Positions 1,219 to 58,353 of a stretch of DNA of 64,000 bases are shown in pieces. Location of the stretch: IMG/VR virus record IMGVR_UViG_3300031857_000001; one strand, 5' to 3'. The notes beneath the pieces are model-generated. The model was given only the letters and a program-made list of their open reading frames with translations. It was not told the origin of the DNA and did not search any database. Positions within the stretch are counted from its first letter, which is position 1; each line of letters starts with the position of its first letter. The stretch is from a virus. Its lineage: Duplodnaviria; Caudoviricetes. The position numbers and the translations under genes are program-made.

Positions 1219-1366
1219 AGTCAAGTGGCGGAATACTGAGAGTCTCCGGAAACATACTCTCAAGGTAGACGTACTAGATGGTTATAGCACTAGGGGTAAA
1301 AAATCACAATGCGTGTGGTCACTATAATGACAGCCCGTGGAGGTTCGAATCCTTCCTTGACTACTA
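1219..1366 (+). ncRNA. tRNA-like RNA (Leu-type scaffold) with D-loop hairpin insertion and branched variable region
   Basis: AGTCAAG/CTTGACT acceptor, GGCGGAA...GGTAGACG D arm split by a TGAGAGT/ACTCTCA hairpin, GGAGG-TTCGAAT-CCTTC T arm; 148 nt. Confidence 0.7.
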
Positions 1367-4384: not shown

Positions 4385-4717
4385 ATGTCAGGAGGAGCAT
4401 TTGACTACAAACAATGGCATATTGAACAAATTGCCGATGAGGTTGAGAAACTGATTGAGAAAAATGGTCGTGAAAAAACACGAGAGGAACTCAAAGAAGA
4501 AGGATGGCGTGTGGATGATTGGTATGAGAAATATCCCGAAGATTTATATCATTACAAATACCCTGATGAAGTAATCGAGAAATTCAAGGAGGGTATGAAA
4601 GCTCTGAGAGTTGCTGCGGTTTACGCTCAACGTATTGATTGGTTGGTATCAGGTGATGATGGTGAAGAAAGTTTTTTGGAAAGATTGAAAGAAGAATTAG
4701 GCCAGTTGGAAAAATAG
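4385..4717 (+). CDS. hypothetical phage protein
   Basis: MSGGAFDY...YAQRIDWLVSGDDGEESF, 110 aa, operon position. Confidence 0.7.
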   Translation: MSGGAFDYKQWHIEQIADEVEKLIEKNGREKTREELKEEGWRVDDWYEKYPEDLYHYKYPDEVIEKFKEGMKALRVAAVYAQRIDWLVSGDDGEESFLERLKEELGQLEK

Positions 4718-4754
4718 CCGTATATTTGTAGAAGTTCTTTGAAATCATTTAAAG

Positions 4755-4879
4755 GGTGGGGTGGCAGACGAAAGTTAGATATATCCAAGTCAAACGTAGC
4801 TACGGTGTTTTTAAAACACGATGGATAAACGACAAGTAGAGCTCTAAGGGAACAAGTCGCTATTGTTCCTCCCCCACCG
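4755..4879 (+). ncRNA. degenerate tRNA-shaped RNA
   Basis: GGTGGGG/CCCCACC terminal stem, GTGT-TTTTAAA-ACAC hairpin, GGAACAA-GTCGCTA-TTGTTCC T-like arm; 10 nt downstream of a boxA-like element. Confidence 0.5.
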
Positions 4880-4889
4880 ACAACATTAT

Positions 4890-5023
4890 AGGTTGATTGG
4901 GGAATGATTATACCAATAGTTTGAGAGTGGATACCGACTGGTATAATCGGAGTTGGCAGGTATTCACCTGAAGTAATGCCAATCGTAAAAGGGGTTGTCC
5001 ACTCGACCATCTTCCCCTTACCT
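4890..5023 (+). ncRNA. unassigned structured RNA with pseudoknot
   Basis: GGGGAA/TTCCCC, GAGTGGATA/TGTCCACTC, CCGA/TCGG, TTGGCA/TGCCAA, CAGGT/ACCTG; 8-bp TTATACCA(4908-15)/TGGTATAA(4939-46) loop pairing. Confidence 0.6.
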
Positions 5024-5031
5024 AAAACACA

Positions 5032-5114
5032 GAGTGGCGCAGGTTGATGCTACCTTAGCGGGTATACTGATACAGAGTAAAAAGAGGTGGGGGAAACCAC
5101 TCATTAACCCACCC
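5032..5114 (+). ncRNA. candidate small structured RNA
   Basis: GAGTGG/CCACTC, AGGT/ACCT, GGTGGG(5086-91)/CCCACC(5108-13). Confidence 0.35.
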
Positions 5115-5119
5115 AACAT

Positions 5120-5191
5120 GGTCGGTTCATCTAAGGGTTAGGATACAAGATTTTCATTCTTGTCATAGGGGTTCGAATCCCCTACCGACTA
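5120..5191 (+). tRNA. tRNA-Glu(UUC)
   Basis: GGTCGGT/ACCGACT, CAAGA-TT-TTC-AT-TCTTG, AGGGG-TTCGAAT-CCCCT; CCA not encoded. Confidence 0.92.
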
Positions 5192-5331
5192 CAAAAAGTA
5201 ATATTTATGAAAAAGATGTTTATTAATACACATAGGGAAATAGAAAAAATACTTCACCCATTTGACCCGGTTGGATTTTACGTTCTAATACCTTTTATAC
5301 TAATCCTATTGTATCTGTTTACATAAAAAAT

Positions 5332-5453
5332 AGTCAGGTGGCGGAATGGTAGACGCAGCTGTGATGATTTTGTTGGAAGGTGAATCTCCTTAAACTATTA
5401 GCAAGGTTAATCAACTCCCAATCATCGTACAGGTTCGAGTCCTGTCCTGACTT
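5332..5453 (+). ncRNA. tRNA-like RNA in which the anticodon/variable arms are replaced by a ~70-nt branched domain
   Basis: AGTCAGG/CCTGACT acceptor, GCG-GAATGGTAGA-CGC D arm, ACAGG-TTCGAGT-CCTGT T arm; insert closed by GATGATT/AATCATC. Confidence 0.7.
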
Positions 5454-5458
5454 CGCGT

Positions 5459-5597
5459 TCCGAAACAAATACAACGGATAGTGTGCCCCACACGAAGATA
5501 AACGGAGTGATGTCCGTAGGAGGTTTGGTATCACAGTAAGGCTGTGTACGACTGTTGACTAGTCGGCCCAAGAAAAGGTAAGAGTTGGTGGTACCTT
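5459..5597 (+). ncRNA. candidate RNA of six tandem short hairpins
   Basis: TCCG/CGGA, GTGTG/CACAC, ACGGA/TCCGT, CACAG/CTGTG, CGACT/AGTCG, AAGGTA/TACCTT in a GC-richer non-coding stretch. Confidence 0.45.
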
Positions 5598-5609
5598 GTT
5601 AGTTAATAT

Positions 5610-5683
5610 AGTCGGATAGCTCAGGTGGTGAGAGCGGCACGCTTATACCGTGATGGTCGTGGGTTCAACTCCCACTCCGACTA
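5610..5683 (+). tRNA. tRNA-Ile(UAU)
   Basis: AGTCGGA/TCCGACT, GCTC/GAGC D stem, CACG-CT-TAT-AC-CGTG, GTGGG-TTCAACT-CCCAC. Confidence 0.88.
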
Positions 5684-5751
5684 CAACTGAAAAACTATAG
5701 TTCATATCTAACTCGCCATTTGTTTAAGATATTTACTATAAAACCTAACAA

Positions 5752-6252
5752 ATGAAACACGTATTTTTTGTACTATGTACAATTTTAACCATTAATGCCT
5801 TTTCACAAACTTTTAAAGACCCTGTGTCTTTTAAGTCCGACTTATGGCTTGTTCAAACTTTTGAGGAAGGCACATTCGTTGCTCCTGATACTATCTCAAT
5901 AACTTGGGATATTAAAAAAGTTAAACAGGGTAAACACGCCATTTATGTTGATATCTCTAAAAAGGGAACATTGATTGGAATTAAATACCCAAATAAACTT
6001 ACATTAAGTTCAGAAGGGTTACCCAATAATGGATTTATGGTTGAGAAATGGTTTAGCCGTTACTCAATGTATATCCAAAGTATGGTAAAGGATGAAGAAG
6101 GATATATTTGGACAGTTACCGTTGGTAAGGATGCGGTTTCTGATGATAATAAGGGATTGGAAAATGGTAGAATATATGTTGTCATACAAGACCCAAAACA
6201 TATAAAACCAAGTTGGTATTTCACCATTAAGTCATTTGGAAGTAAAAAATAA
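5752..6252 (+). CDS. exported hypothetical protein
   Basis: Signal peptide MKHVFFVLCTILTINAFS-Q; 166 aa. Confidence 0.7.
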   Translation: MKHVFFVLCTILTINAFSQTFKDPVSFKSDLWLVQTFEEGTFVAPDTISITWDIKKVKQGKHAIYVDISKKGTLIGIKYPNKLTLSSEGLPNNGFMVEKWFSRYSMYIQSMVKDEEGYIWTVTVGKDAVSDDNKGLENGRIYVVIQDPKHIKPSWYFTIKSFGSKK

Positions 6253-6258
6253 TTATAA

Positions 6259-6329
6259 GGTCGGATGTCCGAGCGAATAGGTGAATGTTTGCAAAACATT
6301 TTAGGGTGGTTTAACTCCATCTCCGACCT
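6259..6329 (+). tRNA. tRNA-Cys(GCA)
   Basis: GGTCGGA/TCCGACC, AATGT-TT-GCA-AA-ACATT, U73 discriminator. Confidence 0.88.
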
Positions 6330-6490
6330 CTTTTTTAAAATAATAATATGGAAAAGAAACCTTTTGTAGATAGCGGAAAATTGTTTATCACATCGATAAT
6401 ACTATTTATTATCATGATGATTATAATGTTTTTTCTTTGATTTTTTAGATTAAATCATTTATATTTTGGGTAAACTCAATAACTAAAACT

Positions 6491-7492
6491 ATGAAAAATT
6501 TATTCCTAACTTTATTTACTTTATTATCGATTAATTTGTTTTCACAATGTGAGAATGACTCAATTAACCCCTATTTTGTTAACTTCGAGCCTGAGGTTAC
6601 AATTTCATGCGATGTTGACCTGAATGTTGTATTTCCTGTTGCTCTTGATGAGTGTGATGATAGTGTTGAGATTGCTTGGTATGAAGAAACTACAAATATT
6701 TATTGTGACAATTCATATGATTTGTTTAGAGTTTACAGAGCTTTTGATAATTTCGGTAATCAATCTGTTGAGTCTCAGATAATTCACGTAGTCGATGAAA
6801 CATCCCCATTATTTCAACCAACACCAACTAAAATTATAAGTTGTGATGAAGTACCGGTTTTTGACCAGCCCGTTGCAACCGATAATTGTGGTTTTATTGT
6901 AATAACTAATCAAGATATGGTTGATACTACGGATAGTTGTCAAATAACTTATACCAGACTATGGACCGCTTATGACCAGTGTGGAAATACCTCATACTCA
7001 TCTCAAACAATAATTTCAATTGATACAGTACCACCAGTCATTAATGGACCAATATATTTGGAAGTCAATGAAGGTAATAATATTGACACTTTATTTGTTA
7101 CAGTTACTGATAATTGTTCATCATTTAATGTAACTTATGTTGACACTGAAGTATCCTCACACAGTATTATAAGAGATTACACGGCGACTGATTATTGTGG
7201 AAATGAATCTACATTTGAGCAAATAATTCATATTAATCACGATGAAGAGGAAGAAGAAGGTGGTGGTGGAAACAACAGAGTCGCAATTTGTCACAATTTA
7301 GGCAACGGAGAATGGATTACAATTTATGTGGCACAACCTGCGGTCCAAGCTCACTTGAATCACGGAGACTATCTTGGTCCTTGTACCGAAATGGTAATAG
7401 ACTGGCAACAAATTCTCCCAAATAGCGATTTACAAATGAGAGTTATTAAGGGAAAAGATAATAAGTACAAAAAATTTGTGAGAGTTAGATAA
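6491..7492 (+). CDS. exported HYR-like repeat protein
   Basis: Signal peptide ending FS-Q; three repeats of pattern D.C...RxxxAxDxCGNxSxxxQxI; C-terminal AICH...AHLNHGDYLGPC motif. Confidence 0.7.
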   Translation: MKNLFLTLFTLLSINLFSQCENDSINPYFVNFEPEVTISCDVDLNVVFPVALDECDDSVEIAWYEETTNIYCDNSYDLFRVYRAFDNFGNQSVESQIIHVVDETSPLFQPTPTKIISCDEVPVFDQPVATDNCGFIVITNQDMVDTTDSCQITYTRLWTAYDQCGNTSYSSQTIISIDTVPPVINGPIYLEVNEGNNIDTLFVTVTDNCSSFNVTYVDTEVSSHSIIRDYTATDYCGNESTFEQIIHINHDEEEEEGGGGNNRVAICHNLGNGEWITIYVAQPAVQAHLNHGDYLGPCTEMVIDWQQILPNSDLQMRVIKGKDNKYKKFVRVR

Positions 7493-7510: not shown

Positions 7511-7963
7511 ATGAAAAGGATTTATTTGGATGATGTTCGTACACCTCTATCTAATGACTGGATTGTCGTTAGAAGTTATGATGAATTTGTTAATAAAGTA
7601 ACCGAGATTGGACTTGGTGAAATTGAAACTATTTCATTTGACCACGATTTGGGTGACACCGCCATGAATGAATATTTCACAAATGTTTCACCAAATTACA
7701 AATTGGATTATAATAATATAACCGAAAAAACAGGTTATGATTGTACCAAATGGATTGTTGATTATTTTTATGAAATGAATCCTGATAGGATTGAAATGAG
7801 TCGCTCAAAAAAAGGAAATACCAAAATTAAATTTCCTTTGGTCGTAGTTCACTCGGCAAATCCAATTGGTTCGGCGAATATTATGGGATATATTAATAAT
7901 TTTTTGATGAATGAAAATAAACCTCAAACTTGTATTAGGGTTAATATTGACCACACGGTTTAA
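7511..7963 (+). CDS. cyclic-phosphate-processing receiver-like domain protein
   Basis: IYLDDVR, ISFDHDLG, TGYD, VHSANPIG motifs; promoter 7499-7506. Confidence 0.75.
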   Translation: MKRIYLDDVRTPLSNDWIVVRSYDEFVNKVTEIGLGEIETISFDHDLGDTAMNEYFTNVSPNYKLDYNNITEKTGYDCTKWIVDYFYEMNPDRIEMSRSKKGNTKIKFPLVVVHSANPIGSANIMGYINNFLMNENKPQTCIRVNIDHTV

Positions 7964-11757: not shown

Positions 11758-11771
11758 AATTTAACAAAGTG

Positions 11772-12146
11772 TGGAGGTATGGGGAGTCGAACCCCTTCCT
11801 ACTCATCTTAACTACTAAGCCCTACATGTTTAGGTCAACATCGATTCTCAATGTTCCGAAATATTGGTTTTTGAGCTCTTAAAACCACAAACGAGTTTTG
11901 TTTCTTTTAGGGTAGAAACCACACCGCAACTACGACTTCTGTTCCAAGGTTGTGTGTCTGCCGACCCGTTTTGTAGGCTAATCCTAGATTAGGCTACTGA
12001 AATGTTCTCCTCAGTACGGATAAGACCAACTGCAGAGAGTTTGTTGATAACGTTGTCGTTTATCATGTGAACCAGTTTTACAAGGTTAGTTCAGCCTCGA
12101 CATGCTCCGAGTAATCAACCATGCTAGTCAATTCCAAGTTACCCCC
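11772..12146 (-). ncRNA. ssrA: tmRNA
   Basis: 5' GGGGGTA pairs with 3' TACCTCC including G3:U70; GGAATTGAC 5' motif; GGGGTTCGACTCCCC T arm; tag ORF 12057-11989 encodes DNVINKLSAVGLIRTEENISVA. Confidence 0.92.
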
Positions 12147-14567: not shown

Positions 14568-16613
14568 TTATTCCCCTTTTTTCTTTCTTGGTTTTTTAAC
14601 CGTAATAGGTTTATTTTCAATAATATTTATTTCTTTATTGTCTACAGATAGTCGATATTCTCCATTTTCGATAATATTGCCCTTTAGAACTTCTTCAGAA
14701 ATATAGTCTTCAATTTTATCTTGAATGGCTCTCTTAAGAGGCCTAGCTCCAAACTGCTCGTCAAAACCAACTTCAGATATTAGTTCAACAACATTTTCTT
14801 CGTAAGAAATATTGTATTTTAAATTTACTAAACGCTTACAAAGTTTATCAAGTTCAAGTTTAACAATTTGTTGTATGTCTTCTTTTTTCAAATTGTTAAA
14901 TACAATAACCTCATCAATACGATTTAAAAATTCAGGAGCGAAAAACTTTTGAAGTTCTTTTTTAAGAACATCTCTCTTATATTCTTCCTCAATATAAGAG
15001 TTAACACTCTTAAAACCAATTCCAGCACCGAACTCTTGTAATTTTTTGGCTCCAATATTCGAGGTCATAATAATGACACAATTTTTAAAGTTGATTTTTC
15101 TTCCCAATCCATCGGTTACGTGACCATCGTCTAACACCTGAAGTAAGGTTGAAAAAATATCCTTATTGGCTTTTTCAATCTCATCAAATAATATAACCGA
15201 ATATGGTTTATTCTTAACTTGTTCTGTCAACTGCCCGCCTTCATCATAACCAACATATCCTGGAGGAGCTCCAATCAATCGAGATATTGTATGTTTCTCT
15301 TGGAATTCGGACATATCAATTCTGATAAGATTATCTTCACTACCAAAAATTTGTTTTGCAAGTTCTTTTGCTAACAATGTTTTTCCAATACCTGTAGAAC
15401 CTAAGAATATGAATGAACCAATTGGTTTGTTTGGGTCCTTAATCCCTAATCTATTTCTTCTAATTGATTTGGCGATTTTAGATACTGCGGAATCCTGACC
15501 AATAACCTTTCCTGAAAGTTCCTCCTCTAATGACGCCAATTTTTTGGTTTCATCTGAATTTAATTTAGAGATAGGTATTTTGGTCATATTTGATACCGTT
15601 TCATAAACTAAATCAGTGGTTATTTCCTTTTTTTGTAATATCAAATCATCATCGAATTTCTTTTTCTCATCCTCTAGTTTCCCCAAAATTTTCTTTTCCT
15701 TATCCCTAAGGTTTGCCGCTTCTTCATAGTTTTGTTTCTTAACAACTTCTATTTTTTGTTGTTTTATTTCGGCGGCTTGTTGTTTTAGTTGGTCAATTAC
15801 TTCGGGTACTTTAATCTCAACTTGACTTCTGGCACCCACTTCGTCGATAATGTCGAAAGCCTTATCAGGGAATTCTCTATCTGTAATATATCGCTCAGCC
15901 AAATCAACGCATAGGGTTAAAATTTCGTCAGAATATTTAACTTTGTGATAATTTTCATACTTATCCTTGATATTTTTCAAAATAAGAAATGTCTCATGTT
16001 TTGTTGCAGAATCAACAATAACTTTTTGAAATCTCCTTTCTAAAGCCCCATCCTTCTCAAAATTCTTTCTATACTCATCCAACGTCGTTGCTCCGACACA
16101 TTGAATCTCCCCACGGGCAAGTGCTGGTTTAAATATGTTGGACGCATCTAACGAACCTGATGAATTTCCGGCACCAACTATTGTATGAATTTCATCAATA
16201 AAAACAATAATATTTGGTGACGATTGTAATTCTTCGATGATAACCTTCATTCTTTCTTCAAACTGACCACGATACTTAGTTCCCGCAACAATCGATGTCA
16301 TATCTAAAGATACAATTCTTTTGTCCATAAGATTTCTAGGGCAATCTCCATTGAAAATTTTAATGGCTAATCCCTCAACAATAGCGGTTTTACCACAACC
16401 TGGTTCACCAATGATGATTGGATTGTTCTTTTTTCTTCTCGCCAAAATCTGAGCGATTCTTGTTATCTCTCTTTCTCTACCAATAACAGGGTCTAATTTA
16501 CCTTCCTCAGCTAGTTTTATTAAATCTCTACTGAAATTATCAAGGACTGGAGTTGACGAATCTCCTTTTGATTTGCTTTTGCTCTTTCCGTCATTATCCA
16601 TTGGTTCGGTCAT
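14568..16613 (-). CDS. clpC: ClpC-like Hsp100 AAA+ ATPase lacking the N-terminal Clp-repeat domain
   Basis: Two AAA modules (GEPGCGKT/IDEIH; GSTGIGKT/FDEIEK), UVR-type M domain YEEAANLRDKE, GIGF loop; starts directly at the LDNFSRDL linker. Confidence 0.9.
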   Translation of the reverse strand: MTEPMDNDGKSKSKSKGDSSTPVLDNFSRDLIKLAEEGKLDPVIGREREITRIAQILARRKKNNPIIIGEPGCGKTAIVEGLAIKIFNGDCPRNLMDKRIVSLDMTSIVAGTKYRGQFEERMKVIIEELQSSPNIIVFIDEIHTIVGAGNSSGSLDASNIFKPALARGEIQCVGATTLDEYRKNFEKDGALERRFQKVIVDSATKHETFLILKNIKDKYENYHKVKYSDEILTLCVDLAERYITDREFPDKAFDIIDEVGARSQVEIKVPEVIDQLKQQAAEIKQQKIEVVKKQNYEEAANLRDKEKKILGKLEDEKKKFDDDLILQKKEITTDLVYETVSNMTKIPISKLNSDETKKLASLEEELSGKVIGQDSAVSKIAKSIRRNRLGIKDPNKPIGSFIFLGSTGIGKTLLAKELAKQIFGSEDNLIRIDMSEFQEKHTISRLIGAPPGYVGYDEGGQLTEQVKNKPYSVILFDEIEKANKDIFSTLLQVLDDGHVTDGLGRKINFKNCVIIMTSNIGAKKLQEFGAGIGFKSVNSYIEEEYKRDVLKKELQKFFAPEFLNRIDEVIVFNNLKKEDIQQIVKLELDKLCKRLVNLKYNISYEENVVELISEVGFDEQFGARPLKRAIQDKIEDYISEEVLKGNIIENGEYRLSVDNKEINIIENKPITVKKPRKKKGE

Positions 16614-56739: not shown

Positions 56740-58353
56740 TCAATTGATTCTGATTTCTTGATTCAGAATAGTATTTTCAGCGTCGGCAAGTAATTGGTCT
56801 ATTTCTAAAGTTGTCTGACCGTTACCTGATGAAACAGGAACTGGAGGACTTGGAGCAACTGGATGAACGTGACCTTTAACAAATTCAAATATCTTTCTAA
56901 GTAGTTTGATTAATTCATCACCTCTAACTGTTGGGTATGTTTTTTCTTGAATTCCGCCAGGTTTAGTGAATTCAATATCAGGTATACCGTATATTGTATT
57001 TGTTAAATCAATTCTTCCCTTAGGACCTGTAATATTGTGAGATAATAAATATAATTTTTGCCCGCCTAATACGGAATAAGTAACCGGACTAGAAAAAACA
57101 TCAATTTTAGTATCTTGTCTCCTGTTAGTTTTAGTAGAAGGTCCTATTGTAGGTATATTATTTGTGTTATTAGAAACTACAAAACAACCGGTTTGAAAAT
57201 TGTTTGATTTGACCTTTATACCTTTTTGTAATTTGAAATAATTAACACTTTCTTGAACGTCACTTGGGTCGACATGTTCTGATAATGTTAGACCTTCTTG
57301 ATATGTAATTTTAGATGGTGAAACTGCAAATGGAAACCTATCGGCATCTTGGAAATTAGACCTACTATTCACAACACTATCATTATATAATACAGTACCA
57401 TCAAATACACTATCGATAAATGTATTAAATGTATAAATTACTTCCTCAATTGTTTTATTTGAAAATCTAATACCCTCTATTTCATTTCCGTAATCGGTCC
57501 CCGAAGTTAAAGTACTAATTGACCCCAATTTAAAATTATCAGTGGTCGCACTTGTAGTCTCTAACATTCTATGGAGTGTTATACTACCTGAAAAATTATT
57601 GGCCGAGTTTCCTAATACACCACTATCAATATTCCAAATTATAATTCTTTTTAATTTAGTTATAACTTTACTAACATCAAAGTTGGTTTCAGTTTCTCCT
57701 TGGACCGTGGACGATAAAAAATTAGATAATTGCAAAAAAGCCCTACTAGTTTTTGATTTAGGATAATCTTGGGGAGTTAAATCACTAGTTACTGTTTTAC
57801 CCGCCCTTATTAGAACTTCTTCAGGTTTAACAATAACATCGGCACTACCTCTACCTAACAGAGCGTTATCACCCGGCTCGGGAAATATTCCAGAACTAAC
57901 ATCATCGTTATATACATTAAAATTATCTTTTAAATTTATACCTAATTTATATCTATCACCAGCCGATAAAATAGATTCAGATGACGGTCTCGTTTCAAAA
58001 TCAGAATTCATCGGGGACGAGAAAGGCCCTTGGATATAGAACTGATTACCAAACAAAAACTTTTTATTTTGATAAATTATATGGACATATTCCCCTTCAT
58101 CAGGGACTTGACTTATATAAAAAGGTAATAAAGGTAGAAATACAAAAATATCATTCTCACCCCACCAAAATTCTGGTTTTAAATCCCTTTCATCATCACG
58201 TAAATATGTTTTGTTAACAGATTTCAACATCTCAGAAACATACTCACTATAAATAGGTTTCGCTCTAACCCTACCTAACATTTTAGGGTCATATCTACTT
58301 ATTACTTCACCAGGAAATATTATTTGATGTTCATTATTTTTATTTATGTTCAT
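56740..58353 (-). CDS. baseplate central spike / gp5-like protein
   Basis: N-terminal OB-fold pattern DPKMLGRVRA...FLPLLP....VPDEGEYVHI; GDNALLGRGSAD; C-terminal VRGDELIKLL..I...VKGHVHP. Confidence 0.7.
   Translation of the reverse strand: MNINKNNEHQIIFPGEVISRYDPKMLGRVRAKPIYSEYVSEMLKSVNKTYLRDDERDLKPEFWWGENDIFVFLPLLPFYISQVPDEGEYVHIIYQNKKFLFGNQFYIQGPFSSPMNSDFETRPSSESILSAGDRYKLGINLKDNFNVYNDDVSSGIFPEPGDNALLGRGSADVIVKPEEVLIRAGKTVTSDLTPQDYPKSKTSRAFLQLSNFLSSTVQGETETNFDVSKVITKLKRIIIWNIDSGVLGNSANNFSGSITLHRMLETTSATTDNFKLGSISTLTSGTDYGNEIEGIRFSNKTIEEVIYTFNTFIDSVFDGTVLYNDSVVNSRSNFQDADRFPFAVSPSKITYQEGLTLSEHVDPSDVQESVNYFKLQKGIKVKSNNFQTGCFVVSNNTNNIPTIGPSTKTNRRQDTKIDVFSSPVTYSVLGGQKLYLLSHNITGPKGRIDLTNTIYGIPDIEFTKPGGIQEKTYPTVRGDELIKLLRKIFEFVKGHVHPVAPSPPVPVSSGNGQTTLEIDQLLADAENTILNQEIRIN

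Follow-up and report, generated by a model that had tools for sequence, protein, structure and literature searches.

A tRNA-Leu-like frame with exchangeable inserts, encoded among the tRNA genes of a T4-like phage

The window considered here is the whole 64,000-nucleotide stretch of the virus record IMGVR_UViG_3300031857_000001 (IMG/VR) that was analysed. Among its genes are those for a large terminase of T4 type, a Gp20 portal and a Gp23 capsid protein. Two features point to a host in the Bacteroidota, namely TAnnTTTG promoter words and a protein bearing a type IX secretion sorting tail. On its plus strand, between a tRNA-Glu (5120-5192) and a tRNA-Ile (5610-5684) of the same orientation, lies a 122-base gene (5332-5453) whose product has the upper half of a tRNA-Leu and, in the place of the anticodon, a folded insert. 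GOLLD RNA and a tmRNA (11769-12146, minus strand; the only one that ARAGORN and Rfam find) are further along the same RNA-rich stretch. The product of 5332-5453 is neither a tRNA, whether decoding or intron-bearing, nor a tmRNA, nor a pseudogene, and it belongs to a family of phage RNAs in which one tRNA-Leu-type frame holds many different inserts. Unexplained tRNA-like stable RNAs of phages were already on record; what seems new is a frame family with exchangeable inserts, which is large and apparently undescribed among phage RNAs, and full-text searches of the literature found no description of it.

Read directly, the RNA runs 5' to 3' as AGUCAGG-UG-GCG-GAAUGGUAGA-CGC, then 72 nt, then ACAGG-UUCGAGU-CCUGU-CCUGACU-U (Table 1). 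The canonical features of a tRNA that it holds are a 7-bp acceptor stem, a D arm with G18G19 and a T arm with a UUCRA loop, and the D arm, with its 3-bp stem, is typical of bacterial tRNA-Leu and has the same sequence as in true phage tRNA-Leu genes. An earlier reading of the letters alone (hereafter the original prediction) had described an anticodon-less tRNA mimic with just these parts, and they are where it had placed them: the acceptor strands AGTCAGG and CCTGACT, the D arm GCG-GAATGGTAGA-CGC (5341-5356), the T arm ACAGG-TTCGAGT-CCTGT and, between the two arms, a replaced anticodon region of 72 nt in which (T)GATGATT closes with AATCATC(G). Its internal AAGG/CCTT hairpin (P3) is also present. 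That the insert is branched, as it had further claimed, stood only in part, in that helices P1 and P2 are supported by the comparison below, whereas the P3 stem is invariant, and a fourth hairpin predicted by RNAalifold (AUUAGC/GUUAAU, in the conserved junction strand) departs from pairing only by mismatches and is unsupported. In P3, the three central bases of the loop are free to vary among relatives in the alignment, and its CCUU could pair instead with an AAGG at 5403-5406.

Table 1. Features of the 5332-5453 RNA and of related elements. Positions are those of the window, except in the last two rows, which refer to cultured phage genomes. A1 is the alignment of 19 sequences with the same insert and R1 the covariance model.
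Feature	Position	Strand	Remarks
Acceptor stem, 5' strand AGUCAGG (tRNA positions 1-7)	5332..5338	+	Pairs with 5446-5452; 100% paired in 19 homologues
U8-G9 and tRNA-Leu-type D arm GCG/GAAUGGUAGA/CGC, with A14, A15, G18G19 and A20a	5339..5356	+	Read directly; subfamily-invariant
Linker AGCUG from D stem to insert	5357..5361	+	A1 columns A26-G30 invariant; no pairing partner identified
Insert helix P1, 5' strand UGAUGAUU	5362..5369	+	Pairs with 5420-5427, 8 bp
Insert helix P2, 5' strand GUUG (GCUG in most relatives)	5372..5375	+	Pairs with 5412-5415
Insert hairpin P3, AAGG-UGAAUCU-CCUU	5377..5391	+	RNAalifold prediction; stem invariant, so neither supported nor refuted
Conserved junction strand AAACUAUUAGCAAGGUUAAU	5392..5411	+	A1
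Insert helix P2, 3' strand CAAC	5412..5415	+	Pairs with 5372-5375
Internal loop, 3' side UCCC	5416..5419	+	Variable among relatives (A1)
Insert helix P1, 3' strand AAUCAUCG	5420..5427	+	Pairs with 5362-5369
U, equivalent of tRNA position 48 (partner of A15, Levitt pair)	5428	+	Subfamily-invariant
T arm ACAGG-UUCGAGU-CCUGU	5429..5445	+	Three of five pairs with compensatory double changes
Acceptor stem, 3' strand CCUGACU	5446..5452	+	Pairs with 5332-5338
Discriminator U (this copy)	5453	+	CCA not encoded; next base C
Probable promoter -7 element TATATTTG (4721) and boxA-like GTTCTTTGAAA (4734)	4721..4744	+	Read from the letters; precede the stable-RNA cluster
Paralogous frame RNA	1219..1363	+	Acceptor AGUCAAG; hairpin insert in D loop; different insert; 29 bits with R1
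128-nt RNA, phage Metamorpho (MT701588)	104422-104549		L217:1408-1535
128-nt RNA, phage JD18 (NC_028686)	57517-57644		L220:401-528

Having no anticodon arm, the RNA is no decoding tRNA. No such arm (a 5-bp stem and a 7-nt loop with U33 and a purine at 37) occurs between 5357 and 5428, and the sole 7-nt loop of the insert, UGAAUCU, carries G at 33 and C at 37. Neither the Rfam tRNA model (RF00005) nor any other Rfam family matched the locus, at gathering thresholds or with E up to 10, and standard ARAGORN did not call it; with the intron option at default stringency, ARAGORN reported 5332-5454 as one of only 6 tRNA-like genes in the 64 kb.

Word searches of viral, metagenome and genome collections produced 19 distinct sequences of the same insert type at 24 loci, plus one truncated copy; further candidates (L189, L190, L192, L196, L197, L201, L203 and L212) were rejected as chance word matches. 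Across the alignment of the 19, 98.7% of cells were paired, as against 21-47% when the 3' partners were slid. Taken together, the ARAGORN call, the homologues and this pairing exceed chance expectation. The acceptor stem had one compensatory change, of C-G to G-C (L194), as well as G-U variants, and in the T stem three pairs were changed on both sides, giving variants such as ACAAG/CUUGU and GAAGG/CCUUC, to which L193 added ACACG/CGUGU. Within the insert, 99.3% of P1 cells were paired, and four of its pairs changed, always to or from a G-U wobble, while P2 (GYUG/CARY) had C-G, U-G and U-A at one position and G-U and G-C at another. Mean identity among the relatives was 93.6% and 88.1% for the 5' and 3' parts of the insert core, 87-88% for the frame and about 60% for the 80-nt flanks; since the insert core is conserved like the frame and the flanks are not, the insert must be under selection of its own. 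The original prediction had allowed that the locus might prove unconserved, and 19 distinct homologues with a conserved frame and insert core refute that.

Some variation within this subfamily was on a larger scale. Eight of the 19 distinct sequences had a variable hairpin of about 24-40 nt inserted just before the conserved junction strand, and in two of those eight (L150 and L205) there was an additional hairpin within the D loop, like that of the 1219 paralogue. At all 24 loci the RNA was on the strand of the neighbouring tRNA genes, often within tRNA arrays, and one locus (L132) held 27 tRNAs and 3 frame RNAs. The insert type of the window was found both in tRNA arrays of giant phages and at a terminase-linked site (L180), and no counterpart of the exact window RNA was found among cultured phages by blastn of the phage collection.

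The frame proved to be far more widespread than the insert. An exact search with the 20-nt word of the D arm matched more than 119 viral contigs, and the common frame that emerged is AGUCAGG...ACAGGUUCGAAUCCUGU-CCUGACU-A. Its Leu-type 5' half consists of the acceptor strand, UG and GCGRAAU..GGUAGAC, its 3' half of a U, the T arm and the other acceptor strand, and a non-tRNA insert stands between them. The loci that were fetched held 131 distinct frame sequences with at least 73 unrelated insert classes of 23-130 nt, and the consensus AGUCAGG...CCUGACU frame was present in 103 of the 131, that of the window included. Sequences with the acceptor AGUCAGG, or with at most two changes to it, all had non-canonical middles and a total length of 72-179 nt, whereas true tRNA-Leu genes with the identical D arm had other acceptor stems and normal anticodon arms. 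Covariance model R1 scored members of the window's subfamily at about 147 bits versus 45-62 bits for other frame RNAs, and the insert classes are therefore discrete. The original prediction had inferred a paralogous family from a single-base-pair difference between two acceptors, AGTCAAG/CTTGACT at 1219 and AGTCAGG/CCTGACT at 5332; the difference is as it had said, and the two paralogues of the window turned out to belong to a frame that recurs in at least 131 distinct sequences. Paralogues are numerous in other genomes too, in runs of up to 6 or more (L207, L008).

Exchange of the inserts could be read from pairs of related loci. The flanks of L016 and L032 are 95% and 92% identical, and their inserts are unrelated; likewise, L180 holds the insert type of the window at a site where its relatives L012 and L104 hold another. 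Orthologous loci with near-identical flanks and unrelated inserts mean, therefore, that inserts are exchanged as cassettes at fixed loci, and the modular scaffold with a variable domain that had been proposed for one RNA is supported by a frame with at least 73 unrelated inserts, of which different ones stand at the same locus in close relatives.

The inserts themselves had little in common. Only one word stood out, CCUU, which was present in 23 of 72 classes as against 9.5 expected (z = 4.6); AAGGU seemed recurrent by eye and was not enriched. CCUU and AAGG, found together in 17 of the 72 classes, co-occurred (Fisher p = 0.002) and paired in the minimum free energy folds of 10 of the 23 classes with CCUU, so that AAGG/CCUU appears to be a recurrent small helix in otherwise unrelated inserts and not a signature. 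In several classes this helix is directly before the T stem, at the site of the tRNA-Leu variable arm, of which it may be a remnant. Pairing right up to U48 was preferred at the insert's 3' end (45 of 70 versus 27-37 in shuffles); the idea that a single closing helix is a rule for every insert was dropped.

At their 3' ends the frame RNAs resemble real tRNA genes. In nearly all of the 131 frame sequences a C follows the discriminator, the commonest trailer being CAA (57 of 131), and real tRNAs at frame-bearing loci likewise have a C and then an A-rich trailer, which suggests one 3' maturation route for both. Among 285 distinct tRNAs of these loci, about a fifth begin with AGUC or GGUC and most have C and then an A-rich stretch after the discriminator; the acceptor of the window's tRNA-Ile is AGUCGGA/UCCGACU-A-CAA.

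These comparisons lead us to a reading to which we assign a probability of about 0.55, namely that 5332-5453 encodes a tRNA-shaped stable RNA that does not decode, belonging to a T4-like phage of the Bacteroidota, with the insert as its working part. Transcription would probably be within an operon of phage tRNAs and stable RNAs, from the promoter and boxA-like element near 4721-4744; no terminator-like site was found on the plus strand within 4600-6600, and judging from this arrangement co-transcription with the tRNAs of the cluster is likely. The intact acceptor/T helix and the D/T elbow would then make the transcript a substrate for host tRNA maturation, with RNase P cutting at position 1, trimming of the 3' end and addition of CCA, and the excised RNA might accumulate at about 122-125 nt. 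Because the conserved 72-nt domain replaces the anticodon arm, the RNA can read no codon. That domain, a rod of P1 and P2 ending in the conserved junction, would be the working part, most likely a module that binds a host or phage factor during infection, and the invariant Leu-type frame would be a general plug-in adaptor giving any insert its processing and stability. While the swapping of inserts is evident from the orthologous loci, its mechanism would be recombination within the two conserved frame halves of about 25 nt each.

Several results weigh against this reading. The single-sequence free-energy fold of 5332-5453 was no better than those of shuffled sequences (z = -0.52), and the case for the fold therefore rests on comparison and not on thermodynamics; for the insert, that comparative support is confined to P1 and P2, is mostly of the wobble kind and comes from 19 closely related sequences. 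The acceptor-stem sequence is near-invariant across very different phages, beyond what processing alone explains. No antisense target of the insert emerged, its longest complement in the 64-kb window being 12 nt (chance level), and none was found within the flanking RNA spacers. Lastly, the recurrent neighbours at 100 frame-bearing loci were ordinary phage genes (large and small terminase, ERF recombinase, RNaseH_like, DUF3127 and aminotransferase), and there was no tRNA- or RNA-repair enzyme among them. Two other ideas about the insert were discarded: mimicry of the 16S rRNA 3' end, for which GGAAGGUG and CUCCUU resemble the Bacteroidota 16S end and for which an 8-mer match is expected by chance by our own arithmetic, and T-box-style pairing of the insert's UGGA with the 3' end, which showed no covariation with the discriminator.

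The turnover of cassettes suggests a role in phage-host conflict, and it is tempting to go further. Phages of several bacterial phyla might use one tRNA-Leu frame as an expression cassette, in which any RNA placed inside would be excised, finished and stabilised by host tRNA enzymes that the frame recruits, the halves of the frame would serve as homology arms, and the insert RNAs (aptamers, decoys or regulators directed against host factors or defences) would be traded between co-infecting phages, the RNA of the window being one such insert. We offer this broader proposal tentatively, as possible and with the odds somewhat against it.

The strongest of the other explanations is that the RNA is a leucine-charged tRNA look-alike, its frame being charged by host leucyl-tRNA synthetase (LeuRS), and that it acts as a leucine carrier outside the ribosome, or else sponges up or regulates the synthetase or EF-Tu. 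For the family as a whole the idea has its appeal. LeuRS ignores the anticodon, and an E. coli tRNA-Leu can lose both its anticodon arm and its variable arm and still accept leucine, provided that it retains A73 and the D/T contacts (PMC9976931). The frame holds the E. coli leucine identity set (U8, A14, A15-U48, G18G19, A20a and the D/T loop contacts) minus the discriminator, and the equivalent of U48 is T in 121 of the 131 frame sequences and the discriminator A in 118. What told against charging was the remainder, as nine members have G73 and four have U73, and the structure is kept in all of them. In the subfamily, U73 is that of the window copy and its three closest relatives (L191, L198 and L202), and the other 15 of the 19 have A; L126:6627-6749 is an A73 relative. 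The fold is kept, too, in a related RNA of the cultured phage Pet-CM3-4, which has C73, and in the copy of LR756501, which has U73. Since A73 is a requirement of bacterial LeuRS, and its change to C73 abolishes the charging of a minimal tRNA-Leu (PMC9976931), this RNA cannot depend on charging if its host follows the E. coli rule, and the U73 of this copy argues against charging as its role; the E. coli identity rule may, however, not be that of the Bacteroidota LeuRS. The D-loop hairpins of L150, L205 and the 1219 paralogue would, in addition, alter the loop geometry that the synthetase reads. On balance we consider a charged look-alike unlikely.

A decoy for host defences or toxins that are directed at tRNAs and bind the elbow, the acceptor or the CCA end, in which the insert would determine the factor that is caught, would account for the fast turnover of cassettes at fixed loci of related phages, which is the pattern expected of an arms race, and for the many paralogues per genome. 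However, the known anticodon nucleases need an anticodon loop, which is absent here, and our tests linked no defence system to the frame. A decoy is a special case of a non-decoding RNA with a working insert and not a separate anatomy; as an explanation in its own right it seems to us decidedly unlikely.

The position of some frame RNAs raises another thought, that the frame is a processing signal only, a form of tRNA punctuation that directs cuts by RNase P and RNase Z, with the insert as a functionless passenger. In one group the frame is between the terminase genes terS and terL, and the terL start codon is 2-9 nt after it in several members (L058, L108, L096, L180 and L012; 2-3 nt in L058 and L108), a TAnnTTTG element often stands 4-5 nt before it, and some members have inserts of only 23-24 nt. 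In others (L016, L055, L096), the first-ATG open reading frame call of terL starts about 100-190 nt off the frame, the distance being about 100 nt in L016 and L055. A passenger would not be expected to have a core as conserved as the frame between flanks that are not, nor to be kept in contexts as unrelated as the tRNA arrays of giant phages and the terL-adjacent site of L180, and the window element is between two real tRNAs that already supply cutting sites; we therefore find punctuation very doubtful.

Within the terS-terL group, two regularities may be recorded in their own right. In one phage lineage (L016:13228-13486, L055, L108, L058, L013, L032 and L044) the frame RNA is exactly 36 nt after terS, and the TAnnTTTG promoter word often ends 4-5 nt before frame base 1. 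In the cases closest to terL, the terL transcript would begin with the frame, and cleavage would leave a nearly leaderless mRNA.

That the locus is an intron-containing tRNA gene or a tRNA-Leu pseudogene in decay is scarcely credible, even though ARAGORN -i gives a tRNA-Ile(aat) with a 44-nt intron and the D arm is that of a tRNA-Leu: the anticodon stem so proposed has 2 mismatches in 5 pairs and no covariation, its 5' strand being invariant opposite ACUCC, GUUCC, GCUAU or GUUUU, removal of the P1-enclosed domain leaves only AGCUG and U between the D and T arms and no anticodon arm, a group I intron would need more than 72 nt and none of the Rfam intron families gave a match, a bulge-helix-bulge motif was not seen in the P1-P2 region (by eye only), and decay is ruled out by the conservation and compensatory changes in the 19 sequences.

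Around the element, a few further observations concern the stable-RNA island as a whole. The 156-nt spacer from the element to tRNA-Ile (5454-5609, plus strand) is equal in length in L191 (1925-2080), and its start is resembled by L126 (CACGTTCCGA...GGATAGT.TGCCC); it may be another small stable RNA. Pfam scans of 30 window open reading frames found no CCA enzyme, RNA ligase, synthetase or Ro60. Between tRNA-Cys and GOLLD, inside the island, 7511-7963 (plus strand) encodes a 150-aa protein that matches Pfam cREC_REC, the 'cyclic-phosphate processing receiver domain' (E = 2.5e-19), and a link to RNA-end chemistry is possible. A ClpB/ClpA-type double AAA+ protein of 681 aa (AAA_2, ClpB_D2-small, AAA_lid_9) is encoded at 14568-16613 on the minus strand.

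If a non-decoding RNA with a working insert is what the frame encodes, a large class of phage non-coding RNAs has been missed by standard annotation (tRNA finders and Rfam), and in the genomes of cultured phages such RNAs go unannotated or lie under a 'hypothetical protein'. They would amount to a cassette-exchange system for RNA modules in phage-host conflicts, for which cultured relatives in phages of Klebsiella and Enterobacter provide a bench system.

Among known molecules, the likeness to tmRNA and the Y RNAs, to which the original prediction had drawn an analogy, is only loose. The tRNA-like domain of tmRNA and YrlA are, like the window RNA, partial tRNA mimics joined to other RNA modules, and to that extent the analogy is fair; in D arm, G3-U70 pair, reading frame and topology of the ends it fails. 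A tmRNA (RF00023) has a reduced D arm, the G3-U70 alanine identity, pseudoknots and a tag reading frame, whereas the window RNA has a full Leu-type D arm, U-A as its pair 3-70, no tag frame and no pseudoknots, and the only tmRNA of the window is the one already mentioned. In YrlA Y RNAs the ends of the RNA form the Ro-binding stem and not an acceptor, the tRNA-like module is internal, and the gene is linked to rsr (Ro60). The ends of the window RNA form an acceptor stem, YrlA (RF02553) gave no Rfam match, and none of the 30 window proteins scanned, which are part of the window's proteins, had a TROVE domain; both identities were rejected.

Class II tRNA-Leu (RF00005) has in common with the window RNA an identical D arm, the T arm, the acceptor geometry, U8, A14, A15-U48 and G18G19, a place among tRNA genes and the same style of 3' trailer; the window RNA differs in having no anticodon stem-loop, no separate variable arm, no match to the Rfam tRNA model and U73. 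In a gap left unannotated in the genome of Synechococcus phage S-H35 (KY945241; L216:1496-1578) there is an apparently normal tRNA-Leu-like gene of 83 nt. The same design logic was arrived at by engineering, in the tRNA scaffold of Ponchon and Dardel, where the acceptor, T and D arms are kept, a helix-closed insert is placed at the anticodon stem-loop, and the fusions are recognised, processed and protected by the tRNA machinery and are stable in E. coli (PMC3753655). That scaffold is man-made, with tRNA-Lys3 or tRNA-Met frames, and is silent on natural function, but the phage frame, if we are right, would be its natural counterpart.

Stable RNAs of cultured phages offer further likenesses. 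The late RNAs RNAC and RNAD of T4 (species 1 and 2), validated by Northern blot, have no known function (PMC9697503). They are, in their stability and their place beside phage tRNA genes, like the RNA described here, and the 3' ~90 nt of RNAC form an acceptor and a T arm with a weak model match (19.6 bits); they have, however, no Leu-type D arm and no sequence similarity, and RNAD gave no model match. In the unannotated record of a published uncultured phage of 735 kb (LR756501.1; L214:2416-2526), there is a 111-nt frame RNA with acceptor AGUUAAG and discriminator U.

Cultured T4-like phages whose hosts are Klebsiella, Enterobacter, Cronobacter and relatives encode, immediately upstream of tRNA-Arg, an unannotated RNA of 128 nt that matched over at least 80% of its length in 144 cultured-phage records, at 84-100% identity. 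Klebsiella phages Metamorpho and JD18 and Enterobacter phages PG7 and myPSH1140 are among its carriers. It scored 39.2 bits with the model, and three of its pairs have compensatory changes among four sequences. It shares with the window RNA a Leu-type D loop, the U48 equivalent, an identical T arm (ACAGGUUCGAGUCCUGU), a 7-bp acceptor and a long folded insert, and differs from it in acceptor (UGUUCAG), in insert and in having hosts among the Proteobacteria. ARAGORN made no tRNA call for it, we found no description of it in the literature, and in several records an annotated 'hypothetical protein' overlies it.

The closest known system is RNA1 of T5 (NC_005859, 30501-30644), which is encoded in that phage's tRNA cluster and carries the annotation 'tRNA-like stable RNA with unknown functions'. 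Its D arm is of the Leu type (GGAAUUGGUAGAC), a U precedes the T stem, the T arm and an acceptor stem are present, and a folded RNA of about 80 nt replaces its anticodon and variable arms; it matched the model over its full length at 39.4 bits, versus at most 23.4 bits for those real T5 tRNAs that matched, and T5's own tRNA-Leu was not among the matches with E up to 1. RNA1 has been regarded as a lone example and not as one of a family whose inserts are exchangeable; it has another acceptor sequence, another insert and an enterobacterial host. T5 RNA2 has nearly the same T arm (GCAGGUUCGAAUCCUGU), and RNA1 and RNA2 are the only two of these molecules for which a discrete stable RNA is annotated. 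If the RNA of the window is what we propose, it would give the long-unexplained tRNA-like stable RNAs of T5, and perhaps those of T4, a rationale.

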